DNA from: Escherichia phage vB_EcoM_PiR
Sequence record: OM313461
Length of the DNA stretch: 52,936 nucleotides
Direction: 5' to 3' (one strand)
Part shown: positions 4,886-41,019 of the stretch, piece by piece
How the letters are laid out: the number at the start of each line of letters is the position of its first letter
How positions within the stretch are numbered: the stretch's first letter is position 1
Notes under the pieces: model-generated
Databases searched by the model: none
Seen by the model: the letters and a program-made list of their open reading frames with translations, nothing else
What the model was told of the DNA's origin: nothing
Made by a program: the position numbers and the translations under genes

Positions 4886-4907
4886 CCCACAAACGGGACT
4901 AACAAAA

Positions 4908-4933
4908 GGCGAGCTGACGAGCTCGCCTTTTTT
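4908..4933 (+). terminator. rho-independent terminator
   Basis: perfect 8-bp stem GGCGAGCT/AGCTCGCC with 4-nt loop followed by TTTTTT. Confidence 0.8.
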
Positions 4934-10392: not shown

Positions 10393-10421
10393 TTTACTTA
10401 ACCGAGGCGCCAGCCTATAAT
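10393..10421 (+). promoter_or_regulatory. sigma70-like promoter TTTACT-N17-TATAAT with embedded inverted repeat
   Basis: -35 10393-10398, -10 10416-10421; 8-bp perfect inverted repeat GCGCCAGC (10407-10414) / GCTGGCGC (10424-10431) flanks the -10. Confidence 0.55.
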
Positions 10422-10453
10422 AAGCTGGCGCACCCAATAAGAGGATTCTCCAG

Positions 10454-25783: not shown

Positions 25784-25985
25784 TAAGCCTGAAGTTGTTT
25801 ATGTTGACAGGGTAGTCAAGGTTTATCCGCCTGGTGCGTACATGGTTAAATGCCATAAACCTGAATTAACAGGTAATACCTGGAAGGCAATAGGTCAGTT
25901 AGCTATTGAACGTGGAACAGCTCTTGATGATTGTGCAGACAAGATGGACAGCATAATTAACTGGAGTAACAAAGGGGCCGAGTGA
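25710..25985 (+). CDS. o-spanin (Rz1-like lipoprotein)
   Basis: ATG 25710 with AAGGG SD; signal peptide LILLLLLPFLNSC with lipobox-like Cys; overlaps i-spanin 3' end in another frame. Confidence 0.55.
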   Translation: MTKRQNMIRALILLLLLPFLNSCADKPEVVYVDRVVKVYPPGAYMVKCHKPELTGNTWKAIGQLAIERGTALDDCADKMDSIINWSNKGAE

Positions 25986-26002
25986 TGGCCCCTTTATTTA
26001 TT
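25971..26002. terminator. bidirectional terminator between convergent late (+) and replication (-) units
   Basis: stem GGGGCC/GGCCCC (25974-25979/25987-25992) with 7-nt loop, A-run upstream and TTTATTTATT downstream. Confidence 0.6.
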
Positions 26003-28483: not shown

Positions 28484-29478
28484 CAGTCCCCTCTCACATA
28501 CGCAATTACAACTGTACGAGTTGAGTTTTCCATTTTGAGCGCCTGACTACCAAGCCCTATTCTTTCCATGCCTTTAGCCAGTTTACTCATCTGACTAATA
28601 ACACAGTTGAACGGTTTACTAAACTTAGTCGACTGGAACTTAATGTCGACGGACATCTTAGGAATAATCTTGTCTGGTAAGTCTGCTTTTGCTGTTGACT
28701 CGCCAGTTATCTCCAGAATGGCTTGACCTTCGTCATACCCAGTAAGCTGGTCCATAACTTCCAGGAATTCAGGAGTGATGGCCTGCATATCCATTTCCAT
28801 ATTGAAGAACTTCGATACGTCTGGCCATTTGGCTGCGAGTACCGGAGCATCCATCTGTACGCCATCCGCAAAACCGAAGAACATCTGACCGCGGGTATAT
28901 CCTACGCTTGTGGGTTCCATCTTCAGCTTAACCAGAGCCTCAAGCATTGGTTTGGCTATGGCACATTCAAATTCAAAATCTACATTCAACTTCTCGCGTA
29001 TCATATACTTACCGTTAGTGGCGTAAGCATAACCATCGCGCAGAAGTAAAGATGTTGCCCATACCTGCGGTGCTTCGTTAGGTACCCATTTGGCTAAGGC
29101 AGTTAATACCGGGAGTAATTCGCCATGTGCTGAATACCAGTTGTTAACTGTAGCAAGCGGCGGTATTGGTTCATTAAGCGCTTGCATTCTTGTTTTAAGT
29201 ACACCTGCTGTGACCGTGAGGTTTCCAGCGGCTGTAATGTTAAAAGTAATCTGTTCAGTTCTTGCCGCATTAACGGCCTTACGAAATGATTCAGCATCCA
29301 CTTGCAGGTCTGGAAATCCTTTACATGGCGCTCGTAGTAATACGTTCTTGTAGTATGAATGGATTGTTCCGTCTGCAATCCATATTTTGCCCATAAGACC
29401 ACTATCAGTATACTTGATGGGACGAGCTTGTTGAACGGCAGTCTGTATTTGTTTGGTGTCATAGTTAAACTTGCTCAT
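28483..29478 (-). CDS. hypothetical protein, possibly sliding-clamp-like polymerase accessory factor
   Basis: 331 aa adjacent to polymerase; WPDVSKFF segment resembles the beta-clamp (F/W)PDYxxV motif; weak, by eye. Confidence 0.35.
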   Translation of the reverse strand: MSKFNYDTKQIQTAVQQARPIKYTDSGLMGKIWIADGTIHSYYKNVLLRAPCKGFPDLQVDAESFRKAVNAARTEQITFNITAAGNLTVTAGVLKTRMQALNEPIPPLATVNNWYSAHGELLPVLTALAKWVPNEAPQVWATSLLLRDGYAYATNGKYMIREKLNVDFEFECAIAKPMLEALVKLKMEPTSVGYTRGQMFFGFADGVQMDAPVLAAKWPDVSKFFNMEMDMQAITPEFLEVMDQLTGYDEGQAILEITGESTAKADLPDKIIPKMSVDIKFQSTKFSKPFNCVISQMSKLAKGMERIGLGSQALKMENSTRTVVIAYVRGD

Positions 29479-29485
29479 AGTATAA

Positions 29486-29501
29486 CGGGGCCGAAGCCCC
29501 G
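29486..29501 (-). other. GC hairpin with UUCG tetraloop (as RNA: CGGGGC-UUCG-GCCCCG) at gene junction
   Basis: perfect 6-bp stem; lies between TS-like stop and next start; same core as hairpin at 35927-35946. Confidence 0.6.
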
Positions 29502-29508
29502 CTCCATC

Positions 29509-30393
29509 TTATACGGCCATTTGTAGTTTGATGTTTGGCATTGGTTTGTACTTCTCAACCATTGGCGTAACATCGGCAGGAGTGAAGTCAAACACTGACA
29601 CGTCGTAAATTGCGTTAATGTCAGGACGACCTTCAAAGTTAGTGTCCAGTGTAGTATCAGAATTGCTTACGATACGTTGCAGGAAAATCTTTGCAGCATC
29701 GATATGATTCTGATAGATGTGATAGTCACCCAGCGTAACAGTCATATCACCTACCCCAGTACCCAGCTCAGCAGCAATGGTAATCTGCAGCATTTGATGC
29801 AACAGAATATCGTGAGGCAGACCCAGAATAACATCCGCGCTACGCATGTGGAACATCAGCTCTAATTCATTGCGGTTGTTAATGAACAGCTGAAAACCAT
29901 GGTAACAAGGCGGAAGGGCCATGGCGTCCATCTCTTGTGGGTTCCATGCCGTAATGTATGCCCGGCGGTCAGTAGGCTTAACCTTCAGCGTTTCAATAAC
30001 ATCTTTAAGCTGGTTAGTAAGAACACCATTCTTGTAGAATGGCTTAATCCATTGCACGCCGTACACAGGACCTAAGTCACGGTTGTCTGGCGTACCCCAG
30101 CGTTTGTTTGCGTCCTGCAGGTTACCTTCCCACCAGTTGCAGCCAAAGCCTTTGAGCGTGTCGACGTTTGAAATACCGTTGATAAAGCAGTAAAGCTCAG
30201 CAGCAACAGCTTTGATGTTAACAGGTTTAAACACCGGCACCATCAGTTTGTTGTCGTTAAAAGCCAGCTTAAATGCTGTACCAAAACAACGGCGTGTACC
30301 AACACCTGTACGGTCTACAACATCCTCGCCTTTACGCAGGATAAAAGAAATGATGTCGCTGTAAAGAGAATCGACAGTGCTATATGTTTTCAT
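29509..30393 (-). CDS. thymidylate-synthase-fold enzyme, predicted dCMP-specific (dCMP hydroxymethylase or methylase)
   Basis: aligns to ThyA: DRTGxGT, DLGPVYG, catalytic Cys in ALPPCYHGFQ, RSxD, GDYHIYQNH; specificity Asn replaced by Asp in GLPHD. Confidence 0.8.
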   Translation of the reverse strand: MKTYSTVDSLYSDIISFILRKGEDVVDRTGVGTRRCFGTAFKLAFNDNKLMVPVFKPVNIKAVAAELYCFINGISNVDTLKGFGCNWWEGNLQDANKRWGTPDNRDLGPVYGVQWIKPFYKNGVLTNQLKDVIETLKVKPTDRRAYITAWNPQEMDAMALPPCYHGFQLFINNRNELELMFHMRSADVILGLPHDILLHQMLQITIAAELGTGVGDMTVTLGDYHIYQNHIDAAKIFLQRIVSNSDTTLDTNFEGRPDINAIYDVSVFDFTPADVTPMVEKYKPMPNIKLQMAV

Positions 30394-30986
30394 TAAAACA
30401 GTTCCTTTTGAGCCGGGTTAACGTGTGCGTCGATGATGGCCTGGATGTCAGGTGCTTTCCATCCTTCAGGCTTAACAATATCCTGACCAGACTTATGCTT
30501 ACTGTTGCTTGCATCAGGCTTAGCACGTTCTTTCGCCATGTTAGCAACTTGTACCGCATCCCATGCTGCGTCGAGTGGCCAGTTGTTGTTTGCACACCAG
30601 GTAATCAGGTGGATAATTAACTGGGCCAGACGGTCGCAATGAGTGTCTTCAGTATCCTTAACGTATACAATAAGGCCGTCAGCATCGAAGCGGTCCATAA
30701 ATCCGCATGGCGTAGTTAACAGAATCGGATACTCAAATTCGTTGGTGAACCATGCAGTCTGGTCATACAGATATAACGTACCTGCAGCAATGTAAATTAA
30801 ATCTACAATACCGTCTAAGAATCCAGCTTTATCGCCGTCCTTCTTAGCTTGTTTAATTTCTTCCATCTCCTCAATAAGACGGTCATAGCGAAGCTTGAAC
30901 TCAGGTTTACCGCCTTGACTAACAGGCTTGAGGTCAAACTTCTCATGAAAAGCGGTAACGCCTGCAGCAATTTTACTGAATCGCAT
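30393..30986 (-). CDS. MazG-like nucleoside triphosphate pyrophosphohydrolase (probable)
   Basis: EEMEEI ... DGIVDLIYIA acidic helix motifs typical of all-alpha NTP pyrophosphatases; TAATG overlap with TS-like gene. Confidence 0.5.
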   Translation of the reverse strand: MRFSKIAAGVTAFHEKFDLKPVSQGGKPEFKLRYDRLIEEMEEIKQAKKDGDKAGFLDGIVDLIYIAAGTLYLYDQTAWFTNEFEYPILLTTPCGFMDRFDADGLIVYVKDTEDTHCDRLAQLIIHLITWCANNNWPLDAAWDAVQVANMAKERAKPDASNSKHKSGQDIVKPEGWKAPDIQAIIDAHVNPAQKELF

Positions 30987-31371
30987 TTCGTAACTCCTTA
31001 CAAACAGTTTCGATAAACTTACGCTTAATTTCTGTAGACCAGATAATATGACGAGCCTGTTCTAAAGTGTCCCAACGTTCTTTACCCACAGGAAAGGGAA
31101 CAATGAAAAGGCCGGTACGGGATATGCGCTTGATAAACGGGAATTTACAGCGCATGGTTGTTTCAAACTTGATAAAGTTGGTTTGCACTTCGCGTGTAAA
31201 CTTGACCTTATCAAATTCATGTTCAAGAGTTTGAGCAAGGTTGCATACTTCCTGGAAAGAAGATGTGGGTAAATAATCTTCGCGGCCGACGGTGTTCACG
31301 TAGTCGATTTGGCCTTCGAGTCGAAGTATCCAAATCCTGTAATAAGCTTCAGCAACACGTTGTAGGTTCAT
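30973..31371 (-). CDS. hypothetical protein
   Basis: ATG 31371 with GAGGAGAG SD. Confidence 0.55.
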   Translation of the reverse strand: MNLQRVAEAYYRIWILRLEGQIDYVNTVGREDYLPTSSFQEVCNLAQTLEHEFDKVKFTREVQTNFIKFETTMRCKFPFIKRISRTGLFIVPFPVGKERWDTLEQARHIIWSTEIKRKFIETVCKELRNAIQ

Positions 31372-31397
31372 TGTATCTCTCCTCTAAAAGATAACTT

Positions 31398-31426
31398 ATT
31401 ATACCACATCACTCTCTAGTGGTAAA
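31398..31426 (-). promoter_or_regulatory. sigma70-like promoter TTTACC-N17-TATAAT (minus strand)
   Basis: reverse complement of 31421-31426 is TTTACC and of 31398-31403 is TATAAT, 17-bp spacer. Confidence 0.55.
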
Positions 31427-31445
31427 GCACTTTTTATGCTTCGGG

Positions 31446-31477
31446 TAAAAATAAAAAGGACCAGCGTTAACTGGTCC
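31446..31477 (-). terminator. rho-independent terminator
   Basis: stem GGACCAG/CTGGTCC (31458-31464/31471-31477), 6-nt loop; on minus strand followed by UUUUUAUUUUU. Confidence 0.7.
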
Positions 31478-31739
31478 TTTTGGCAGGGTGGCGTAAGGAG
31501 ATACAAGGAATCGCAGTTATGCAACCAGGCAGCGCATATGAGATTGGCTAAAGGACTGACCGACTTAATCCCCGCGACGAGTCGAAAGGAGGTACCATCA
31601 AGTAGCCAATCACATATGCGTTACTTGCTGTGTGCTCTTACCACAGAAAGTATATAGCGTTACACTTATCACACAGTTGTAGTGGCAAAAGCACACAGCA
31701 AGTACAACCTTAGTTGTGGTGTCTTAGCACCTGAGTTAT

Positions 31740-31748
31740 TGTGGATAA
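31740..31748 (-). promoter_or_regulatory. perfect DnaA box TTATCCACA
   Basis: reverse complement of 31740-31748 is TTATCCACA; lies in 565-bp non-coding region between 12-bp inverted repeats TAGTTGTGGTGT (31711-31722 / 31784-31795). Confidence 0.5.
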
Positions 31749-32047
31749 CCTGCACCCGACGGGTGTCAAAAAGATACGCCAAAACACCACAACTAAAATT
31801 GTGACCGCCGTCTACACCAGGCGCCTGGGGTCAAGGTAGCGAGCCAATACCCTTTTCAGCGTCGGAGGAATCGAACCTCACACATCACGGCTTTTACCAA
31901 ATCTCGGTCAGCGAGCAGAATTGAACTGCATTCACTGGACACCCTCACTGTTTCAACACACCAGGCTTAATTGATTGTTGATAAGAAGAGAGATGTAAGG
32001 ATGTCCATTGAATGCACCTCCGTAGAGGTGCGTTCAGATCAGCGCTA

Positions 32048-32515
32048 TTATTCAGCAACTTCTTCGTTGTCGCCTTCGATCGCGCCAGCCAGTTTAGCAG
32101 CTTCAGCTTTAGCAGCTTCTGCTTTCTGGCGAGCTTTTTCAGCTTTCTCTTCAGCTTTGCGAATCTGCTCAGCAGCTTTCGCTTCGGCTTTTTCAGCTTT
32201 GATGCGAGCACGCTCTTCAGCTTTACGCTGTTTTTCAGCGGCTTTAGCAGCATCGCGTTCTGCTTTAGCGGTATCAACACGCTTAGCCAGAACTTTACCA
32301 GTGGCTTTACGCCAGTAGGTCAGCTGGGAAGAAACAGTACCACGGGACATTTCGGTAGTGGCAACAACTTCGTCCATAACGTCAGAGCTGGACTTGCCTT
32401 CTTCATGGGCTTTATCAGCCAGGTCCCATACGTAACGTGCGCCAGTACCAGCTGCCGGATACAGTACGCCGTTAACTTCTTCTTTACCAGTTACAAAAGT
32501 CAGTTTCTCGCTCAT
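32048..32515 (-). CDS. hypothetical protein with Ala/Lys/Glu-rich low-complexity C-terminal tail
   Basis: start re-assigned to ATG 32515 with GAGGAA SD; C-terminal KAEE/AKAA repeats. Confidence 0.6.
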   Translation of the reverse strand: MSEKLTFVTGKEEVNGVLYPAAGTGARYVWDLADKAHEEGKSSSDVMDEVVATTEMSRGTVSSQLTYWRKATGKVLAKRVDTAKAERDAAKAAEKQRKAEERARIKAEKAEAKAAEQIRKAEEKAEKARQKAEAAKAEAAKLAGAIEGDNEEVAE

Positions 32516-32563
32516 AATTTTTTCCTCGTCTACAGGGCTTAATGTTTGTTCGTTACGTGAGTT

Positions 32564-32592
32564 AATATACGTCATTTAAAAGAGAGTGTAAA
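32564..32592 (-). promoter_or_regulatory. sigma70-like promoter TTTACA-N17-TATATT (minus strand)
   Basis: reverse complement of 32587-32592 is TTTACA and of 32564-32569 is TATATT. Confidence 0.55.
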
Positions 32593-32621
32593 CACCTTTT
32601 TTAAACTTTTTTCATTAGTGT

Positions 32622-32849
32622 CTAGAAAGGCACATCATAGTCAAAAAGTTTACATCCGGAAGACAGGACTGCCGGCGGTGGTGTTTTGCCTCCGGATAAT
32701 AGACAACCTCCTGCCTGAAAGCTACGGCAGTTCGCACAGCTCATATCCTGCAGGTATATAATAAGCTGCCGGCGAACGTGCCGAGGCAAAGCTTTAGCCT
32801 GGGTTGCTACCCGTTCAAATAGTTCTCTGTCATCGAGCGCCATAGCCAT
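32622..32849 (-). CDS. small Cys-containing protein (hypothetical)
   Basis: 75 aa with CANC...GGC...GC cysteines; overlaps helicase 3' end by 20 nt. Confidence 0.4.
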   Translation of the reverse strand: MAMALDDRELFERVATQAKALPRHVRRQLIIYLQDMSCANCRSFQAGGCLLSGGKTPPPAVLSSGCKLFDYDVPF

Positions 32850-34500
32850 TCCCCCAGTCGTAGTTCATGATTTGTGGGTAGGGTCGTTTAATCCATACCT
32901 TGATGCGCTTAGGAATAGCCAGCTCACCCTTACGGCGAATAAACTCATCGCATGTTTCAGGCGGTTCGGTTCCTGCAGCATTACGCCACCAGGCATCTGC
33001 CATTTGCTTAGCATTACCATGGGCCTCAATATTTACCCAAGTTGTGTACACTTCCAGGTTTGAATAATACACAACCTTTATACTGTCAGGCCGTCCTTGC
33101 TTCTGGAATAAAGAATAGTTTACCAGCGTAACATCCTTATCCACAACACGAAGCTGACCGTTAGTCATTACCTCTTCTTCTGATGAAGTGAAGGCAATAG
33201 CAGGTCCGTTAACTGTAAATTCAAATTCATGTCCGCACATCGGATATACACCATTCTCGTCTGGCGTACTTCCTTTAGCCGGATGTTTACATGTACGAGC
33301 AGCATAACCACTTACCTGGTGGCAGATAGGGCACTCTTTACCGCCAGGTGTTTTCTCTGACCGTTTCTTTTTCTTCTTACCAAGACGTGGCGGAACAGCC
33401 GGGTCATCAATAGGACCAAGGTCAATGGTGTTAGATGTGAAGTCCATAACAAGACAGTCATGCTTACCAGGCGCTGTACGTAATCCTCGACCGAGTATCT
33501 GCACCCACAAGGCAACAGACGTGGACGGGCGCAAGATGCCGAGCATATCAATTTCAGGATAGTCAAAGCCTGTTGTCAATACGTTTACGTTTACGCATAC
33601 CCTGGCACGTCCGCTTGTAAACTCTTCCAGTGCGGCTTCACGTTCTTTCTTTGTAAGACCGCCATGCACAACTACAGTCTGCCACCCGCGCAGATTAAAT
33701 TCGTCTGCTATGTTGTGGGCGTGCTCAACACTTGTGGCAAATACAAGAACGTGGTTCCTGTCTTTACCGTAGTGCATCATCTCACGAATAGCCGCGACTG
33801 TTATACTATGCTGGTTGGCTACCTTCTCGAGCTCTGACGGGATATAGTCACCCATCCTTTCGCCAACATTACTGGTGTCAATCTTGGTTAACACTTTCTT
33901 GTTGACCAGGCGCGACAGGAAGCCTTCATTTACCAGTCGGGTGAATGCGTCAGGTGTTGTAAGGTCATAGCAGATGTCGGTAAATATACCACAGTCAAGC
34001 AAGTGACCACCTGCCAGTCGATACGGAGTTGCTGTAAGGCCTGTTACCTTTACCTTAGGATTAAGCTCTTTGAAATGAGCAATAACCTTACGGTATGTTG
34101 TTTCAGACTTCTCAGGAACGAGATGGGCTTCGTCAATGAATATAAGATTGAACTTACCTGCTTCTTCCAGGTTCTTAATAATCGACTGTACTGACGCTAC
34201 AACTATACGACCTGAAAAGTCTATGTGTCCTGCACCTGAAGAGTAGATTGATACTGGTGCTTGTGCCCAGTGGCGAACAATTGCTTTGGCGTCTTGTTCT
34301 ACCAGCTCCTTGACGTGTGTCAATATAAGAATGCGCTGACGTGGATAGCTGGTAAGAATATCCTTCATCAACATACCAAGCACAGGTGATTTACCTGAAC
34401 CTGTTGGCATGACAATAAGTGGGTTACCACTATAAGAATTGAAGTACGACCACCAAGCGGTCACAGCTTCTTGTTGATACCAGCGAGCTTCAAAAGCCAT
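32830..34500 (-). CDS. SF2 DEAD/DEAH-box DNA helicase
   Basis: motif I MPTGSGKS, motif II FIDEAH, SAT-like TATP, C-terminal Cys cluster CPICH...C; GAGGAGA SD. Confidence 0.75.
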   Translation of the reverse strand: MAFEARWYQQEAVTAWWSYFNSYSGNPLIVMPTGSGKSPVLGMLMKDILTSYPRQRILILTHVKELVEQDAKAIVRHWAQAPVSIYSSGAGHIDFSGRIVVASVQSIIKNLEEAGKFNLIFIDEAHLVPEKSETTYRKVIAHFKELNPKVKVTGLTATPYRLAGGHLLDCGIFTDICYDLTTPDAFTRLVNEGFLSRLVNKKVLTKIDTSNVGERMGDYIPSELEKVANQHSITVAAIREMMHYGKDRNHVLVFATSVEHAHNIADEFNLRGWQTVVVHGGLTKKEREAALEEFTSGRARVCVNVNVLTTGFDYPEIDMLGILRPSTSVALWVQILGRGLRTAPGKHDCLVMDFTSNTIDLGPIDDPAVPPRLGKKKKKRSEKTPGGKECPICHQVSGYAARTCKHPAKGSTPDENGVYPMCGHEFEFTVNGPAIAFTSSEEEVMTNGQLRVVDKDVTLVNYSLFQKQGRPDSIKVVYYSNLEVYTTWVNIEAHGNAKQMADAWWRNAAGTEPPETCDEFIRRKGELAIPKRIKVWIKRPYPQIMNYDWGNGYGAR

Positions 34501-34558
34501 TTAACGTCTCCTCATTAACTTCATATATTATACCACTTCCTTGTGGTGATGTATACTT

Positions 34559-35437
34559 TTATTTTAAGGAAAGTTTAACGGGCTTCTCATCCTGTGGGAA
34601 GACATCAGCAGGGCGATACTCATCGCAAGCCGCTAATTGCTCTTCGATTGTTTCGAGTTCTTTCTGGTGCTTGTTGCAGTACCACACTTTGCCCTGAAGC
34701 GGTTTACTGTAATGGCAGGTTCTGCAGTTCCTGTCTGGCATTGCTCCTTTGTGGCACAAGTGATGGTATTCGCACATCCCTGGTTTGCACTCCCACCAAA
34801 TAGGCGATTCAGAAATCTTCGGCATATCCAAACCAGATTCCGCATATACAACAGCCTCCGCTTTACTCAGTTGTATGTCGCTTTCCAGTAAGTCAATCTC
34901 GACCACTTCAAAATACATCTCGTCAGTGTTCTTGTTGATTGCAATATACACAGCTTGATTCAGCTTAAGCTTCCGCATGTACACCTGCATCTGGGCGTAG
35001 TGTACCGGCTTACTTGCTTTAACAGACTTGAGCTTGACTAACTCTTTAAACGACTTATCGCCATGCGTCTTGAATTCAGCAAGTGCCCATACGCCTTTGT
35101 ATTTAATTACACAGTCACAAGACCCAGAGAAGATGTCATTGAAGTCGTGTATGCGCCATTGCTTACCAGTCTTGGGATTGACGTCCAGCACTTCGTCACA
35201 TACGGAACGAAGCCACTTTACAATTCTGCTTTCTTCAAGGTTACCACGTTCAAACAGACGAAGTTGCTTAGCTGTAAACTTCTCCTTGAACGACCAGTGC
35301 AGAACGTGCCAAAGATAGCGATAGCAGTTGTGTCCTATCTGCGATGCTCCAAGATGCCCGCGTCGTTCTTCTCTTTCATGGGCTTCGACTATCTTGATGT
35401 CAATACGTTTCTGCAGGTCGTTAAACGGACTGGGCAT
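34559..35437 (-). CDS. Cas4/RecB-like PD-(D/E)xK nuclease with C-terminal Cys cluster
   Basis: D...EFK nuclease-like motif and CKPGMCEYHHLC Cys cluster; start re-assigned to ATG 35437 with GAGGAG SD. Confidence 0.55.
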   Translation of the reverse strand: MPSPFNDLQKRIDIKIVEAHEREERRGHLGASQIGHNCYRYLWHVLHWSFKEKFTAKQLRLFERGNLEESRIVKWLRSVCDEVLDVNPKTGKQWRIHDFNDIFSGSCDCVIKYKGVWALAEFKTHGDKSFKELVKLKSVKASKPVHYAQMQVYMRKLKLNQAVYIAINKNTDEMYFEVVEIDLLESDIQLSKAEAVVYAESGLDMPKISESPIWWECKPGMCEYHHLCHKGAMPDRNCRTCHYSKPLQGKVWYCNKHQKELETIEEQLAACDEYRPADVFPQDEKPVKLSLK

Positions 35438-35906
35438 TGTTAAACTCCTCAACGCTGAATTCATCATACACAATATTATGTGCCCACAAATGGGCGACGG
35501 CATTTGCCATGCTGTCCTTCCATTTGGATTGAGAAGCTGTGTGTGCCAATGCAACTACCCGAACCAGGTTAAGGTTGGCTATCAGCATATCTGCACAATG
35601 TTCGCACGGCGGGTAGGTTATGTAGATGGTAACCGGGCCTAATGAAGGAGTGTCTAACTCACTCCTTATATTAGCTAAGGTATTTATCTCGCTATGAATA
35701 GTTAGAGCGTTCTTGAGGCTATTAGGCACTATTCTTATAGAGTCTAGCTGCGTAGGTAAGCCGTTATATCCAGTGGAAATAATACGCTTGTTCTGGTCCA
35801 CAAGAACACTACCGACTTGACGTTTCGGGTCCTTTGACCAGCTTGCAACTTCACAAGCTATGCGCATAAACCGCTTGTCCCACTTGTCCATCTTCTTCTT
35901 TTGCAT
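35421..35906 (-). CDS. dCMP deaminase
   Basis: zinc-binding motifs HSEINTL (H-x-E) and PPCEHCADM (PCxxC). Confidence 0.85.
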   Translation of the reverse strand: MQKKKMDKWDKRFMRIACEVASWSKDPKRQVGSVLVDQNKRIISTGYNGLPTQLDSIRIVPNSLKNALTIHSEINTLANIRSELDTPSLGPVTIYITYPPCEHCADMLIANLNLVRVVALAHTASQSKWKDSMANAVAHLWAHNIVYDEFSVEEFNNAQSV

Positions 35907-35926
35907 GGTAGTCTCCGTATACGAAA

Positions 35927-35946
35927 ATAGGGGCCGAAGCCCCTAT
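35927..35946 (-). other. GC hairpin with UUCG tetraloop (as RNA: AUAGGGGC-UUCG-GCCCCUAU)
   Basis: perfect 8-bp stem, followed on minus strand by UUUUCGUAU; between SSB-like stop and deaminase start. Confidence 0.6.
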
Positions 35947-35967
35947 TGAATATCTACTCGGCAGGGA

Positions 35968-36513
35968 TTACTCTTCCCAAGGAGCTGCTTCACCACCATC
36001 AGTACCAGGTGCCGTTGCAGTAGCACTCCCCTTCATTGAAGTACCCGCACCTGCACCTACTTTCTTCGTCGTCGATGCAGTTGCTTGAGACTGACCGCCT
36101 ACTGCAGTAGTTGCTTCAGTTGACGCTTTGTATTCGCGAATATCGTTTTGTGGGTCGTATTCACCGGTCTTGTCGATACGAACACCAACTTTACCGGCTA
36201 CAATACGGTTTTCCAGTAAGTCGGTAGAAGTCAGTTCAACAATACCCAGCGCACGACACAACGCAGACAGTTTGCGATGACCGATTTCAACAGCTTGTGC
36301 ATTAGGGTTGGAGTAGGTAATCATGTCAAATACAACACGGTTAGCGAACTCACCTTCCTGCACTTTCAGACGCAGGGACAGGTAAGAACCAGTGCCTGCT
36401 TTAGTCGGCTTCAGCTCAACCTCTTCAATCATGAAGTTGTACCAGCCTTTCGGGATAGGGTCAAAAGACTGTTGCGGTTCGACGGTAGAGCTGTTGAAGT
36501 TTAATTCAGCCAT
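35968..36513 (-). CDS. ssDNA-binding protein (DUF669-like, probable)
   Basis: position next to AAA_24 ATPase and nuclease; Gly/Ala/Thr-rich flexible tail ending in acidic PWEE. Confidence 0.45.
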   Translation of the reverse strand: MAELNFNSSTVEPQQSFDPIPKGWYNFMIEEVELKPTKAGTGSYLSLRLKVQEGEFANRVVFDMITYSNPNAQAVEIGHRKLSALCRALGIVELTSTDLLENRIVAGKVGVRIDKTGEYDPQNDIREYKASTEATTAVGGQSQATASTTKKVGAGAGTSMKGSATATAPGTDGGEAAPWEE

Positions 36514-36585
36514 TGTTTGGTATCCTGTTTAAGTTTAGTTTAATTTCGTTTAACGCTTTACCGGCAGCGTTCGGCCGTGATGCTT

Positions 36586-36615
36586 ATTATACGCCACTTT
36601 TTATCATGGCGTAAA
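36586..36615 (-). promoter_or_regulatory. sigma70-like promoter TTTACG-N18-TATAAT (minus strand)
   Basis: reverse complement of 36610-36615 is TTTACG and of 36586-36591 is TATAAT. Confidence 0.5.
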
Positions 36616-36620
36616 CACTT

Positions 36621-37505
36621 TTATTTGCTGGTTTCTTTCTCAGCTTGAGCGGCTTTCTTCGCCATCCAGGCTTGGTGCTTCTCTTTCGATTCGTCCGAAC
36701 CGATTTTAGTGAGCTGCACGTTTGGGTCGTCGTTCTGCATCTGTTCTGCAGCTCGACCTGTCAGGAGCAGGTAGCTGTCTGACTCCGGATGATAATACCA
36801 CAGCTGGTAAGGATGATAGCCTTGTAGCTTATCATAAATCCAGCCCAGATCTGCAGGTTCACGTGCATCCAGTTCACGGCCTGGTGCGTTACGGCACTTA
36901 GCTTCCCATTGATAGTCAGGTTGTGTCTGAATATAGCGCTCGCTGTTACCATTGGCATCAGGTGCAGTCATACGTAAAGCAAGCACCGCATCCATAAGGT
37001 ACGGTAACTGTTTAGGTAACTGCTGACCAGGCATAAGAGGTGAGTACAACATTGCACCAGTAACCTCGTCCTTGTTCTTCTCAAGCTTGCACAGGTATGC
37101 AACGCTGAAAGGCAAGTCACGGAACTGACGCATGATATACATCATCTTGTCGTTGGTATTACCATACGCCTGTCGTTTGTCATTAACCTGTGACTTCTCG
37201 TAGTCCAGACAAACTTCAGCAACATCTGATAGTGAGTCGAAAATCAGATGCTCATACTTCTGCGCATCCTTACTTTCGGTAAGCCATTTGTACAGCGCCA
37301 GAATGTCGTTGAACGTATTGATTGGCGTAGAGTCGATGTCAGCGTCTGCAATTGACATCAAACCGCCTTCGGCATTAATGACAAGAACCTTGTCATGAGG
37401 CAAGGTCTTAGCCAGGGTGGTTTTACCAACACCTGATGCGCCGTAAATAGCGACCTTAGGTCGCTTATTTTCTACGGCTTGTTTAGTAGATACAATCTGA
37501 ACCAT
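36621..37505 (-). CDS. AAA_24 (Sak4-like) RecA-fold ATPase
   Basis: Walker A YGASGVGKTT followed by VLVINAEGG, typical of Sak4-type recombination ATPases. Confidence 0.65.
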   Translation of the reverse strand: MVQIVSTKQAVENKRPKVAIYGASGVGKTTLAKTLPHDKVLVINAEGGLMSIADADIDSTPINTFNDILALYKWLTESKDAQKYEHLIFDSLSDVAEVCLDYEKSQVNDKRQAYGNTNDKMMYIMRQFRDLPFSVAYLCKLEKNKDEVTGAMLYSPLMPGQQLPKQLPYLMDAVLALRMTAPDANGNSERYIQTQPDYQWEAKCRNAPGRELDAREPADLGWIYDKLQGYHPYQLWYYHPESDSYLLLTGRAAEQMQNDDPNVQLTKIGSDESKEKHQAWMAKKAAQAEKETSK

Positions 37506-37735
37506 TAATGATAGTCCTCGTAAAGTGATTCTTCATCGCAGTACATACGATAAAGAGCTTCTTCGGCTTCTTCCAGGGTGTCAAACTCCTCGCCACAGAC
37601 GGAGTATTTTGTGGGTTCATCGAATGACTCGACGATGTGCCAGTCATGATGAATACCGTATGTCCACAAGTCGCAGTCATCTTTTGCAACAAGCTTACGT
37701 GTGGAACGAAATTGTGCTAGAGTATTGATGCTCAT
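37505..37735 (-). CDS. hypothetical small acidic protein
   Basis: start re-assigned to ATG 37735 with GAGGAGAGAGAAT spacer; track start is GTG. Confidence 0.5.
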   Translation of the reverse strand: MSINTLAQFRSTRKLVAKDDCDLWTYGIHHDWHIVESFDEPTKYSVCGEEFDTLEEAEEALYRMYCDEESLYEDYH

Positions 37736-37795
37736 ATTCTCTCTCCTCATGTGTATAGAGGTATTATACACCACTTACATGGGGTAAGTACACTA

Positions 37796-38242
37796 TTATT
37801 TTACACTAACAGCTTGACACGATAGCCGCGACAAACCGAGGTTGGCTATAACGCCATCGAGCAATACTCCTGCATGTTCTTCATTGTATGCTTCTACCCA
37901 CAAAGGGATGGTGACGCCCTTCAGATGGTCGCTATACACGTTAAACCTATATACCTGTTTGTGTGCTTTGTCAACACGCACAACAGTAAGGTTACCATCC
38001 TCGTAAGGAGGAAGCTCAACGCCTTTCTTACTCCAGAAGTTACGGAACTCAGCACTATTAACAATGCCGTGTACAACACGTTCTGTAAGCTCTGTTTTGA
38101 GGTCAGCACGTGCCTTTGTACTGATAAAGAAACGACAAGAGAAGAAAGCATTGACGTTTAACACATCAACCGCGTACACAACGTTATGCTCTTCAGCAGT
38201 TGGTGCTTTATAAACAATATATTTAGTTTTGAACAGGTCCAT
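37796..38242 (-). CDS. hypothetical protein
   Basis: ATG 38242 with GGAGAG SD. Confidence 0.55.
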   Translation of the reverse strand: MDLFKTKYIVYKAPTAEEHNVVYAVDVLNVNAFFSCRFFISTKARADLKTELTERVVHGIVNSAEFRNFWSKKGVELPPYEDGNLTVVRVDKAHKQVYRFNVYSDHLKGVTIPLWVEAYNEEHAGVLLDGVIANLGLSRLSCQAVSVK

Positions 38243-38290
38243 AGTACTCTCCAGGGAGGAAGATAGGCGGGCTTGTACCCGCCGAAGTTA

Positions 38291-39196
38291 TTACAGCAGT
38301 TCTGCTTTCATGGCAGCGATACCATCAAGCAATGCTTTGATGTCCGGATTAGATGCTGCCAGGTCTGCAACAACTGACTGACGACGACGTTCCAGCTCTT
38401 TCTCAACTTCCAGGTCGAGGCGTGCTGATGCTTCACGCAATAAGGTTTCAACCTGCTGACGACGCTGGTACTTGTTAAAGTCAGGTACATCAACCAGCCA
38501 TTTGAGAGTTGCAGTATTATAGCCAGAAGTATTGGCTGCACTTACAGACACAACGTCAACCAGCTTAGTACCGTTTAAGTCCGGATAGTTAACATTGCGA
38601 ACGTCAACAACTGCTTTGTCGCCTACACTTACTTTGCCGATGTACTTGTATGTGTACACACGACCATTCGGTTCAAATTTAACACCGACGAACTTCAGTT
38701 TGTCGTCGGCAATAACTTCTTCCTCAACTTTGAAGTTGATTGCTGTGTTCTTGACAGGTGCAGCCGCTTTGAGCTTAGCAACCATGTACTGTTCGGAATG
38801 AGCAGGACGGCACAGACGGAATACGTCTTCATTGTACGTCAGCCAGTTACCAGTCTCATCCATGCATGCAATCTGATTAGTGCCATCCAGCGAACGAACA
38901 CCCGGACGATTCTTCTCAACACGATACAGCTTACCTTCTTTCAGGTTAGCATAAGAACGGCGGGCGATACCCCAGTTGTGTTTTTCAGATTCATACTTAG
39001 CGAAACGGTCAACACTGAAGTTCTGCTTCAGACCACGGTCGTCAATTACCCATAAGTTATCGTAAGCACCGCCGAAAGAACCCAGGTTGGCATACACTTT
39101 GCCCTGCGTCAACAGGGAAGTGTTTCCCTCGTCAACACAGATAACAAAACCCAGAGCTTCGTGTGCTTTACCGCTGCGGTCAAATACTGTAGTCAT
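38291..39196 (-). CDS. hypothetical protein
   Basis: 301-aa ORF, ATG start. Confidence 0.55.
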   Translation of the reverse strand: MTTVFDRSGKAHEALGFVICVDEGNTSLLTQGKVYANLGSFGGAYDNLWVIDDRGLKQNFSVDRFAKYESEKHNWGIARRSYANLKEGKLYRVEKNRPGVRSLDGTNQIACMDETGNWLTYNEDVFRLCRPAHSEQYMVAKLKAAAPVKNTAINFKVEEEVIADDKLKFVGVKFEPNGRVYTYKYIGKVSVGDKAVVDVRNVNYPDLNGTKLVDVVSVSAANTSGYNTATLKWLVDVPDFNKYQRRQQVETLLREASARLDLEVEKELERRRQSVVADLAASNPDIKALLDGIAAMKAELL

Positions 39197-39310
39197 TTCT
39201 TGTTTCCTTGTATACCAGTTTGATTGTATGCCAGAGACATTCCCTGCGCATGTGCTTTATTGCTTAACCGTTAAAGACATTATATCATTAGTGAGTGGTG
39301 ACGTACACAT

Positions 39311-39601
39311 TTATTTTAAGGCAGAAGTGCAAATAGCATCACACAAACAATAATGAGCACGGTCGTAGTCTTCAAACAAGAACACTTCGCCGTTGGCGAC
39401 TACTTCAATATCGTTAACTTGCATGCTGATACCAGAATGCAGGAGCACATCCATAGCCTGGTCCTTGTTCTTGTACGGGTCCCAAATAAGCTGGAAGCCT
39501 GACCCACAAAGGAGACATCCCTTGAGCTCCGGAAGAGTTGACTCCTTCACGGTCACATTACAAATCTTAGCCAGCTTAGCACGAGAATCGAGAGTACTCA
39601 T
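39311..39601 (-). CDS. hypothetical protein
   Basis: ATGA overlap with upstream gene stop. Confidence 0.5.
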   Translation of the reverse strand: MSTLDSRAKLAKICNVTVKESTLPELKGCLLCGSGFQLIWDPYKNKDQAMDVLLHSGISMQVNDIEVVANGEVFLFEDYDRAHYCLCDAICTSALK

Positions 39602-39876
39602 TTACGTTTGTGTGGAGGTGTATATGTTTTCTTCGGTACGCCGAACATGGCCGCATATGTACCGACTTCTTTCTTTGTTGGCTTATCCACAATCTCGTCA
39701 ATCACGATTAAGTCATGGTTGATATTGCGAAAGACTTCAGCCGCTCTTTTCTCAACAGGAGTAAAGTCAATAACCAGCTCTTTGCCTATCAGGCTTTCTT
39801 TGAACTTGTCAAATAGCCATTTGTCACGCGGACCAGGATTGCCCATAAACATAACACGCATCTGCTTATTGTCCAT
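39598..39876 (-). CDS. hypothetical protein
   Basis: 92-aa ORF with ATG start. Confidence 0.5.
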   Translation of the reverse strand: MDNKQMRVMFMGNPGPRDKWLFDKFKESLIGKELVIDFTPVEKRAAEVFRNINHDLIVIDEIVDKPTKKEVGTYAAMFGVPKKTYTPPHKRK

Positions 39877-39944
39877 GGATGATATACCCCGTTATTTGTG
39901 TTGCCAGGTACAAACCGTATACCACACACCCAACTAGTATGGCA

Positions 39945-40244
39945 TTAAGAATAAGATGGGCTATCCTCACGTTTTAACTGGACGTTACGGCTGTTAACCA
40001 CTTCCAGGCTGGTGCCATCATTTTTGTGGGTTACACGAATAAACGCAACACCCTCAGCCTGTGCCTGCTCAATAGCTTTATTCAGCACAACATTATCCTG
40101 TACCATATGACGTACGCGAGGAAGGATATTACAAAGAGGTTCCATCTCATCCATTCCTGCAGTACGCATGACTGACTTGAGAATGCCAAGATGATGCTTA
40201 TAACGGTCTTCAAGATTATACTTCTTGCTGTTATCTAATGCCAT
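39945..40244 (-). CDS. hypothetical protein
   Basis: start re-assigned to ATG 40244 (GGAGA SD); track start 40256 is TTG. Confidence 0.5.
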   Translation of the reverse strand: MALDNSKKYNLEDRYKHHLGILKSVMRTAGMDEMEPLCNILPRVRHMVQDNVVLNKAIEQAQAEGVAFIRVTHKNDGTSLEVVNSRNVQLKREDSPSYS

Positions 40245-40288
40245 GTAAGTCTCCAAAAGTCAAGGGGCTTGTGCTAAGCCCCGTCTAA

Positions 40289-40738: not shown

Positions 40739-41009
40739 CAGTTGTTTCCTCAGGTTGCATGTGCATAGTTGCACCAATTAGTAGACAATAGTTATTGAAC
40801 ATTGTACGTAGTGCCTGGCCCGCAACAATATCCGTTATGTCTATTATACCACTTTTAGTGGTGACGCGTAAAGCTTTTTCTTTCTTTGTTTTTTCCACGA
40901 ATGCAATGCTGATGATTTCTTCCGCATGTATTACGTGGATAGTACCTGCAAACTCACCAGTCTTAGCTGGTGCCTGGTACACTAACGACATAGACGGTTG
41001 GTTACTCAC
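40641..41009 (-). CDS. hypothetical protein (GTG start)
   Basis: GTG 41009 preceded by AGGAG; 3' end overlaps start of next gene in another frame. Confidence 0.4.
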   Translation of the reverse strand: MSNQPSMSLVYQAPAKTGEFAGTIHVIHAEEIISIAFVEKTKKEKALRVTTKSGIIDITDIVAGQALRTMFNNYCLLIGATMHMQPEETTDGTEPTRTGIDGHGTAVRQAGESEPLDGTGES

Positions 41010-41019
41010 TTAATTACTC

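Follow-up and report, generated by a model that had tools for sequence, protein, structure and literature searches.

Conserved RNA hairpins in the replication operon of Escherichia phage vB_EcoM_PiR and a candidate split ribosome-binding site preceding its processivity-factor gene

Hairpins at gene junctions of the replication operon

The Escherichia phage vB_EcoM_PiR sequence that was analysed in this work (sequence record OM313461; the whole stretch of 52,936 nucleotides (nt) is referred to below as the window) contains on its minus strand an operon for replication and nucleotide metabolism, extending from 41457 down to 26001, which has GC-rich hairpins at several of its gene junctions. The operon begins with early genes of unknown function, and these are followed by the genes for a Sak4-like ATPase, the SSB protein (ssb), dCMP deaminase (dcd), a Cas4-type exonuclease, a helicase and a MazG-like protein, by thyA, and by the genes for a DNA polymerase processivity factor, the DNA polymerase and a DksA-like protein. 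The gene for the processivity factor, whose product matches phrog_947 (E = 7e-48) and which will be referred to as the clamp gene, is the main subject here together with the hairpin preceding it, which may form part of its ribosome-binding site (RBS). By megablast, the window belongs to Rosemountvirus, matching Escherichia phage JEP7, Salmonella phage BP63 and some 40 more at 96-98% identity over 16 kb, and its gene coordinates are exactly those of the colinear JEP7 record. Between 24500 and 43500, the window and JEP7 differ by 419 substitutions across 19 kb with zero indels, and these substitutions are mostly at 3-nt spacing and clustered in some genes; the window could be either a mosaic relative of JEP7 or another version of the record.

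The four hairpins within the operon, designated hp1 to hp4, are described here on the minus (transcribed) strand. The first of these, hp1 (29501 to 29486), has the sequence CGGGGC-UUCG-GCCCCG with a stem of 6 bp and lies between thyA and the clamp gene, and hp2 (35947 to 35926), consisting of AAUAGGGGC-UUCG-GCCCCUAUU with a 9 bp stem, follows ssb. The hairpin hp3 (38283 to 38266), which is found between the genes g38291 and g37796, is GGCGGG-UACAAG-CCCGCC, i.e., GGCGGG(U)-ACAA-(G)CCCGCC, and hp4 (40282 to 40264), located between g40289 and g39945, is GGGGCUU-AGCAC-AAGCCCC with a stem of 7 bp. A fifth hairpin, AAAGGGGCC-N7-GGCCCCUUU (25971-25995, both strands), is a bidirectional terminator between the convergent lysis and replication modules; its minus-strand fold has an energy of -19.8 kcal/mol (z = -5.1), and in BP63 it is annotated as rho-independent on both strands. 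An initial annotation of the sequence had noted these five hairpins, and a direct check of the sequence found all of them at the claimed positions. The identical GGGGC-UUCG-GCCCC core that it described for hp1 and hp2 corresponds to a 14-nt sequence, GGGGCUUCGGCCCC, common to both, and the related GGGGC...GCCCC stem that it assigned to the other two internal hairpins is present in hp4 (40264-40282) but not in hp3, where the stem is GGCGGG/CCCGCC instead. Also within the operon is a canonical terminator, AAAAGGACCAG-UUAACG-CUGGUCCUUUU followed by a U-tract (31454-31481, minus strand; fold z = -4.95, tail score -5.62) and then by a promoter. This terminator, which the initial annotation did not list, served as the reference for one of the full type.

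The pattern GGGGC-N3-9-GCCCC occurs four times in the window compared to an expected number of 0.06, a count that was reached in none of 100 shuffled sequences, and all four copies are intergenic. Nine of the 32 perfect GC-rich hairpins are in the non-coding 9.2% of the window (binomial p = 0.002), where the gene map used for this enrichment was a crude greedy choice of open reading frames (ORFs) and, of the nine hairpins taken as intergenic, at least one (35645-35667) lies in dcd. The folds at the junctions have energies of -12.3 to -19.2 kcal/mol, with z from -2.2 to -3.4 relative to dinucleotide shuffles. The hexamer CUUCGG is present 30 times in the window (16.3 expected), but only its two stem-loop copies are relevant to the hairpins. 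A C(UUCG)G tetraloop in an intergenic position is seen in hp1, hp2 and most of their orthologs, and hp3 and hp4 carry other loops in this phage. A search of the window against Rfam at the gathering threshold yielded zero matches.

A GC stem of at least 5 bp with a 3-8-nt loop, on the sense strand and after a gene, is common to hp1 to hp4 and to the terminators at 25971 and 31454. An intrinsic terminator should also have a U-tract directly 3' of the stem (at least five U residues in 8 nt), and a consensus terminator scan of the window calls only hp4 and the hairpins at 25971 and 31454, and not hp1, hp2 or hp3. The tail scores of the internal hairpins range from -3.1 to -3.8 as against -4.25 to -5.64 for the operon-end terminators; hence, the earlier observation that most of these hairpins lack a full U-tract is true for this phage. 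In other phages, the stems of the hp1, hp2 and hp4 orthologs are mostly followed by U5-6, with the exception of hp1 from the lineage L023 which has none, and the tract following hp3 is weak everywhere.

Sigma-70-like promoters are present in the other intergenic regions of the operon, and none is found in the hairpin-bearing ones, based upon the annotation of BP63, a consensus scan and the aligned intergenic regions. These three sources make up the promoter map, as a promoter regular expression caught only three of the intergenic regions containing promoters. The operon promoters share the form AAGTGTAC...TGnTATAAT, and the operon is presumably transcribed by the host RNA polymerase, which is part of the explanation favoured here. 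One promoter precedes the genes from g41020 to g40289, which are followed by hp4 and three further genes (g39945 to g39311), and another precedes g38291, hp3 and g37796. A third unit comprises a promoter, ssb, hp2, dcd and the exonuclease gene, and a fourth consists of a promoter, g30973, mazG, thyA, hp1, the clamp gene, the polymerase gene and onward to the terminator. No promoter is found between a hairpin and the next start, which applies to dcd and the cas4-exonuclease gene (hp2), g37796 (hp3), g39945 to g39311 (hp4), and the clamp, polymerase and other genes (hp1). As these downstream genes have no promoter of their own, every hairpin must be read through, and the suggestion that they are something other than simple strong terminators is thus borne out.

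Conservation and covariation of the hairpins

The relatives used for comparison included other Rosemountviruses, Loughboroughvirus (S144, ZCSE2, AEV23, SE4), the fHy-Eco03/KE25/SE1_KM group, Erwinia phage SOI901 and six metagenomic contigs. Scans of IMG/VR gave five known relatives only and a metagenome scan added one more, and the further lineages were obtained through protein searches and contigs. The identity of their clamp proteins to that of the window extends from 99% down to 48%, and the orthologous junctions were located by mapping each protein of the window onto the locus of each relative. As many as eight or nine further phage lineages have hairpins at the same gene junctions, formed by stems of different sequence. 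At the junction of thyA and the clamp gene a hairpin is present in every lineage, and after ssb it is present wherever both ssb and the downstream gene could be mapped. A hairpin is also found in most lineages in which g38291 and g37796 are adjacent and mapped, and at the junction of g40289 and g39945 in the two genera having that gene order.

The pairing of these stems is maintained despite the changes in their sequences. For the hp2 junction, an alignment (A4) of seven distinct sequences is 100% paired with two-sided changes at five of the nine pairs; neither the observed pairing nor the covariation was matched in any of 500 shuffles, and sliding of the partner columns reduced the pairing to 29-68%. 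The hp1 stems were out of register in the MAFFT alignment, and for this reason they were compared in an ungapped, loop-anchored manner with separate shuffle and slide controls. In this comparison, eight distinct versions are 100% paired, both sides have changed at six of the seven pairs, and the observed pairing was reached in none of 1000 shuffles. Over hp1, hp2 and hp3 in the different lineages, 15 G.U pairs and no A.C pairs were counted, the L023 version of hp3, which has a 3-nt loop, being counted separately. The pairing is therefore held only on the transcribed strand, indicating selection upon RNA rather than DNA, and the hairpins are conserved sense-strand RNA structures.

In the sister genera, the stem of hp1 bears no relation to that of hp2. 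In S144, for example, the two are GGGCGGC/GUCGCCC and CAGGAGC/GCUCCUG, respectively, and the identical GGGGC-UUCG-GCCCC core of the two hairpins is peculiar to Rosemountvirus. Therefore, the shared core is not a recognition motif, and the hairpins that the initial annotation described as a family do not constitute a sequence or repeat family. A repeated or mobile sequence family similar to repetitive extragenic palindromic (REP) elements was likewise rejected, as the hairpins have only this core of hp1 and hp2 in common, their orthologous stems differ and their flanks are unrelated. That the palindromes are DNA-level elements (viz. protein-binding sites, cruciforms or copies of a mobile repeat) is extremely improbable, since, although they are perfect in this phage and two of them have the 14-nt core in common, the orthologous stems change in sequence yet keep their pairing, this pairing is seen only on the transcribed strand, the hp1 and hp2 cores are unrelated in sister genera and asymmetric UUCG loops are retained on the sense strand.

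The hairpin between thyA and the clamp gene

The junction preceding the clamp gene has the layout UAA-GAU-GGAG-[CGGGGC-UUCG-GCCCCG]-UUAUACU-AUG. A GGAG Shine-Dalgarno (SD) sequence (29502-29505, minus strand), situated 23 nt upstream of the AUG, directly abuts hp1 (29486-29501; fold -16.3 kcal/mol, z = -3.4), and the remainder (29476-29485) consists of a 7-nt AU-rich spacer, UUAUACU (29485-29479), and the clamp AUG (29478-29476). The distance between the SD and the AUG is 23 nt on the linear RNA and 7 nt with the 16 nt of hp1 folded out. A GGAG/GAGG/AGGA-type SD with a gap of 2-9 nt from the start is present in 21 of the 23 operon genes, the exceptions, apart from the clamp gene, being a gene with an annotation problem and a gene that is coupled by overlap. 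In the operon, only the clamp gene has its SD at a distance of about 22-23 nt. Within a gap of 2-14 nt from its start, the best duplex with the anti-SD sequence has an energy of only -1.7 kcal/mol, compared to -4 to -7.6 for most of its neighbours. When the entire 52.9 kb window was scanned for an SD followed after 0-2 nt by a GC hairpin and, after a further 4-9 nt, by the start of an ORF with 50 codons or more, hp1 was the single site identified. Regarding the start codon itself, the residues M1, K3 and F4 of the clamp protein are invariant in six lineages, and the thyA stop codon is in frame with the clamp AUG with no in-frame start between them.

The same arrangement was observed in 11 ortholog versions of this junction, which represent about eight distinct stems. 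In these, 0-2 nt separate the GGAG from the GC core on its 3' side and the spacer has a length of 6-9 nt, so that the SD is 23-29 nt from the AUG on the linear RNA with an effective distance of 6-10 nt, while the stems, loops and flanks vary. The lineage L023 (86% clamp identity) has AAGUAU as the 3' flank of hp1, with no U-tract and a tail score at the 63rd percentile, and this geometry is kept in it. The three most distant clamp homologues (21-29% identity) have neither a thyA neighbour nor an intergenic region nor a hairpin, and two of them have a start that overlaps with the stop of the preceding gene (UAAUG); these homologues are informative on hp1 only as to its absence.

A similar organization is known for genes 38 and 25 of phage T4, where an RNA structure between the SD and the AUG shortens their spacing, in gene 38 from 22 to 5 nt and in gene 25 from 27 to 11 nt, and where mutations destabilising the structure reduce initiation (PMC3014915); the split RBS of these genes was described by Nivinskas et al. 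(1999) and Malys and Nivinskas (2009), whose work is cited here as it is reviewed in PMC3014915. The junction of T4 genes 37 and 38 reads UAA-GGAG-AGGGGC-UUCG-GCCCUU-CUAAAU-AUG, with the GGAG 22 nt from the AUG and a fold of -16.7 kcal/mol, and the junction of thyA and the clamp gene in the fHy-Eco03 group reads GGAG-AGGGGCC-UUCG-GGUCCCU-UUUAUUAU-AUG. The T4 junction is nearly the same element as that of thyA and the clamp gene in the window and in the fHy-Eco03 group, and the region upstream of T4 gene 38 and that of hp1 are alike in the order of a stop codon, GGAG, a GC-rich C(UUCG)G hairpin, a short AU-rich spacer and AUG. In both of them, part of the lower stem is made by weak pairing between the 3' half of the SD and a pyrimidine-rich 3' flank, no other SD is present and the arrangement is kept among relatives. 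However, the gene following hp1 codes for a DNA polymerase processivity factor and not for a tail-fibre assembly or baseplate protein, it belongs to an unrelated phage group, and in most lineages a U-tract, which could also cause termination, follows the hairpin. The hp1 junction is further distinguished by many different stems over lineages with 48-86% clamp identity, and its putative function, unlike that in T4, is deduced from the sequence.

Based upon this architecture, its conservation and the resemblance to T4, we suggest with fair confidence that hp1 is the structured spacer of a split RBS of the T4 gene 38 type. Because the GGAG is 23 nt from the AUG, it would be too far away to work on the linear RNA. 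Folding of the highly stable C(UUCG)G hairpin would loop out 16 nt and leave an effective spacing of 7 nt, allowing the 30S subunit to contact the SD and the AUG together, and accessibility of the SD may be tuned by the weak lower pairs that the GGAG forms with the U-rich 3' flank.

An alternative that we regard as unlikely is that all four hairpins, including hp1, are leaky intrinsic terminators or attenuators, with the GGAG being incidental and the clamp translated by means of reinitiation or with the help of S1 bound at the AU-rich spacer. Terminators do classically take the form of a GC stem with a tetraloop, the thyA stop is just 30-40 nt upstream, and UUUUAACU, UUUUGACU or UUUUAUUAU comes after hp1 in the majority of the sister lineages, where the tail scores do not exceed the 0.5 percentile; but the GGAG is invariant at 0-2 nt from the stem in every lineage, unlike the A-rich 5' flank of hp2, and L023 retains the geometry without a U-tract. 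Additionally, strong SDs are present in nearly all of the neighbouring genes but the clamp gene has no other SD, the counterpart in T4 gene 38 is without a U-tract, and strong termination at this position would be intolerable as the essential polymerase gene downstream has no promoter of its own.

The partial pairing of the SD could also be taken to mean that hp1 is a negative element, in which the SD, and in this phage a part of the AUG too, is held in the lower stem until that stem is melted by the ribosome finishing thyA, resulting in coupling or repression of clamp translation. The minimum free energy (MFE) folds of the window, fHyEco03-type, S144 and CHIN23 versions pair GGAG or GAG with the U-rich flank, the thyA stop is 6-14 nt from the hp1 stem, and a ribosome terminating at this stop has a footprint that reaches the stem. 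We nevertheless consider this reading improbable, because melting of the hairpin would leave a non-functional SD 23-29 nt from the AUG and thus could not by itself activate translation, because the extra pairs are weak and mostly G.U, and because T4 gene 38 shows the same partial pairing alongside an enhancing role that has been shown experimentally.

A combination of these functions, which we consider doubtful, is that hp1 works as a bifunctional switch, the same hairpin being both a terminator stem and the bridge of the split RBS, which would make transcription as well as translation of the clamp and polymerase genes dependent upon translation of the upstream nucleotide-synthesis genes. In such a switch, the ribosome finishing thyA, 6-14 nt from the stem, would block formation of the hairpin behind RNA polymerase and thereby suppress termination, and after its departure the hairpin would refold and assemble the SD-AUG site. 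The decay of the U-tract and the addition of a mini-ORF in Rosemountvirus would then represent a variant of the same circuit.

This mini-ORF of 10 codons, AUGGAGCGGGGCUUCGGCCCCGUUAUACUAUGA, was reported in the initial annotation as having a stop codon that overlaps the clamp AUG, which is correct, although its true span on the minus strand is 29507 to 29475 instead of 29508 to 29478 and it is not a conserved feature. Its AUG (GAUGGAG) is restricted to five sequences (the window, JEP7, BP63, yarpen and SE13), all of which are Rosemountvirus, and it is absent in all other lineages, where the nearest outgroup has GACGGAG and the others UAAGGAGAC, CAGGAGA and similar sequences. A relay, in which ribosomes that have translated thyA reinitiate at the AUG 2 nt downstream, pass through the hairpin while reading the 10 codons, terminate at a UGA that overlaps the start of the clamp gene (AUGA) and there reinitiate once more, fits the UAAGAUG and AUGA overlaps and the retention of the ORF in the five Rosemountvirus genomes examined. 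It is, however, very unlikely, and as a conserved mechanism it was rejected, since the lineages that have no such AUG still keep the hairpin and the spacing; the mini-ORF may make a contribution within Rosemountvirus. Thus, of the translation-coupling role proposed earlier, the connection with translation is retained for hp1, where the GGAG abutting the stem, which had been overlooked, is the only SD of the clamp gene, and the relay through the mini-ORF is not.

The other junction hairpins and overall interpretation

The remaining three hairpins precede genes with a normal SD located 5 nt from the AUG. The hairpin hp2 begins 20 nt past the ssb stop and, together with its tail UUCGUAUAC, occupies 35917-35947 (minus strand), with the SD of dcd at 35916-35913. 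In all sister lineages, this junction shows an A-tract, a GC stem and a U5-6 tract, and the tail scores there do not exceed the 0.1 percentile of all genome positions. The hairpin hp4 with its tail UUGACUUUUG (40254-40282, minus strand; -12.3 kcal/mol) begins 6 nt past the g40289 stop, and it is retained in Loughboroughvirus with a U-rich tail. Lastly, hp3 (38266-38283, minus strand; -18.2 kcal/mol) begins 7 nt past the g38291 stop, and at this junction the stems of other lineages are GCGGGAC/GUCCCGC, GCGGGGC/GCUCCGC and AUGCGCUCUU/AAGAGCGCAU; its tail is weak and C-interrupted in all lineages, with scores at only the 1st to 13th genome percentile. Between hp3 and the SD of g37796 (38243-38265, minus strand) there is a pyrimidine run, CUUCCUCC, resembling the anti-SD sequence, which can pair with the downstream GGAG in a second small hairpin; the run is kept in Rosemountvirus and Loughboroughvirus and not in the fHy-Eco03 group, and it may be an SD-sequestering element.

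In their GC stems of 5-9 bp with 4-5-nt loops, preceded by an A-tract and followed by a U-rich sequence, on the sense strand and past a stop codon, hp2 and hp4 resemble intrinsic terminators and attenuators. They differ from these in that their U-tracts are interrupted (UAUUUUCG, UUGACUUUU) and weaker than those at operon ends, and, unlike for full terminators, their efficiency must be partial as essential promoterless genes are found downstream. Thus, hp2, for which the choice is between a leaky intrinsic terminator and a 3' stabiliser, is best read as a putative leaky terminator, and hp4 is probably another of the same kind. The third hairpin, hp3, may function mainly as a 3' stabiliser or a weak attenuator. 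It resembles REP-type and other intercistronic stabilisers in being a stable stem-loop directly 3' of a cistron in a polycistronic RNA with a weak U-tract, but it is not a mobile repeat and is much shorter than REP pairs. Each of hp2, hp4 and, more weakly, hp3 is placed after the first gene or genes of a promoter-driven unit (viz. ssb, g41020 to g40289, and g38291, respectively), and a fraction of the transcripts would end at the hairpin and keep it as a 3' structure that shields them from 3' exonucleases. As an outcome of this, the promoter-proximal gene, in particular that for SSB which is needed stoichiometrically, would be expressed above the enzymes encoded downstream.

A different explanation, which is possible but which we hold only tentatively, is that the hairpins act mainly after transcription, with RNase E cutting the AU-rich stretch 3' of the hairpin and the hairpin blocking PNPase and RNase II, so that segments of the mRNA would have different half-lives without any termination. 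An AU- or U-rich single-stranded stretch is present after each of the hairpins, hp3 is conserved despite its weak U-tract in all lineages, and UUCG hairpins are exceptionally stable, a CUUCGG hairpin being known to stabilise the T4 gene 32 mRNA (PMC8948821). The 3' end produced in this manner is the same as that from leaky termination, and the two cannot be separated by sequence alone; yet the conserved U5-6 following hp2 and the SD geometry of hp1 are left unexplained by processing and stabilisation. RNase III sites need a double-stranded RNA of roughly 20 bp at least, in which an internal loop is usual, and processing by this enzyme in the manner of T7, which falls under the RNase processing put forward in the initial annotation, is unlikely and was rejected since the stems are only 6-9 bp. 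A PeSL-like terminator-promoter cassette was also rejected for hp4, as the TTGACT following its stem has no -10 element at 16-18 nt.

Hairpins of the form (X)nCUUCGG(Y)n are common in intergenic regions of phages, especially of T4, and their roles are varied (Tuerk et al., 1988, as cited in PMC8948821). The hairpins hp1 and hp2 and most of their orthologs are similar to these in having the extra-stable tetraloop in an intergenic location of a virulent coliphage, but the C(UUCG)G hairpins make up a structural class with diverse functions rather than a single mechanism, and the loops of hp3 and hp4 differ. The four internal hairpins accordingly do not form one functional class. Leaky termination at hp2, probably at hp4 and weakly at hp3, taken together with a split-RBS spacer at hp1, is in our judgement a reasonably probable account, according to which the hairpins are independent sense-strand mRNA structures under selection at particular junctions, serving these two purposes with transcription reading through the terminators.

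Several observations weigh against this account. In most lineages, the MFE fold extends hp1 into the GGAG by means of G.U and A-U pairs with the U-rich flank, which could lower access to the SD, and a U4-5 tract after hp1 is present in most lineages, with full U-tracts in the S144 and fHy-Eco03 versions, so that a terminator role may coexist with that in translation. The loop-anchored alignment of hp1 was built from single-sequence folds and is therefore biased to structure, MAFFT by itself having left the stems out of register. The stem of hp4 shows no covariation and is carried by two genera only, the U-tracts of hp2 to hp4 are merely intermediate in this phage, and the consensus scan missed hp1 to hp3. 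Furthermore, a literature search on the Rosemountvirus group gave genome and host-range papers and no transcript study. The structures, with their conservation and covariation, the geometry of the SD and the likeness to the T4 element are shown by the sequences, and the functional steps, viz. termination, stabilisation and the influence on translation, are all inferred.

The intergenic region between sak4 and ssb contains, after the promoter, the ssb leader (36514-36577, minus strand), in which a possible H-type pseudoknot is formed by stem 1, CGGC/GCCG, and stem 2, AACGC/GCGUU (36577-36552). The pseudoknot begins 64 nt before the ssb AUG and is followed by an A-rich unstructured stretch with three to four (U)UAAAC repeats up to the SD. 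All 10 lineage versions have this element, 100% paired; stem 1 covaries, with GC, AU and UA occurring at one of its pairs and more types at the pair next outward, and stem 2 is invariant. In L011, L005 and L026, an extra insert of about 45 nt with complementary ends, CUCGGUGCGGUUAUACAUAUCCAUGGUAUCUUGUCCCUGCCGUACCGAG, is found between the promoter and the pseudoknot. The autoregulatory operator of T4 gene 32, which encodes the SSB of that phage, consists of a pseudoknot 67 nt upstream and UUAA(A) repeats overlapping the RBS (PMC3014915), and the ssb leader has this same layout of a pseudoknot followed by repeats up to the RBS. By analogy, it is a possible independent case of translational autoregulation by SSB; a literature search identified no paper linking DUF669 SSBs to a pseudoknot.

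Some other features of the window were also noted. Five promoter-bearing regions on the minus strand (39279-39308, 37763-37793, 36586-36620, 34527-34556 and 32564-32594) have in common a -35 element of the form AAGTGT(T)TAC / AAGTATAC and an extended -10 element, TGnTATAAT. Each has in its spacer a short inverted repeat (e.g., CACCAC..GTGGT, CGCCA..TGGCG, CCCCA..TGGGG), whose position but not sequence is kept across lineages; it may represent an operator or mark a phage-specific class of promoters, and the DksA-like protein is encoded in the same operon. The 676 nt from 31372 to 32047, which hold the 31454-31481 terminator and a promoter, are without an annotated gene except for a 54-codon ORF in BP63. 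The equivalent region of Erwinia phage SOI901 contains tRNA-Pro and tRNA-Gln, and a tRNA search of the window found none. At the start of g40641 (40992-41019), the annotated ATG at 40991 has no SD, and a GTG at 41009, located 8 nt past an AGGAG, gives an ORF of 122 aa; the start in the JEP7 and BP63 records is thus probably too short. In the structural operon on the plus strand, a 12-bp bidirectional terminator (4904-4931) follows a 325-aa ORF and is succeeded by a TTTACA-N17-TATAAT promoter, and an 8-bp GC hairpin (10407-10431) follows a 985-aa ORF.

The interpretation presented here bears upon both annotation and experimental use of these phages. Gene callers and published records place an RBS and a 'promoter' inside hp1, as is the case in the S144 record; in the S144 paper itself, the predictions are of promoters only. 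Designs for expression or engineering that do not include hp1 would probably lose clamp expression. The hairpins hp2 to hp4 suggest a simple map of the operon units, viz. a promoter, the first gene, a leaky hairpin and further genes, and they fit known kinds of elements. Experimental documentation of the split RBS exists for genes 38 and 25 of T4, and the review PMC3014915 names only these two cases. The candidate described here, which precedes the gene for a polymerase processivity factor and would control its expression, is conserved by compensatory change across several phage genera, down to 48% clamp identity, and appears to be a T4-gene-38-like case in a new setting. If this is true, it would constitute an independent case in unrelated Salmonella and E. 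coli phages that are therapeutic candidates, and the split RBS would be a recurrent solution rather than a curiosity of T4.

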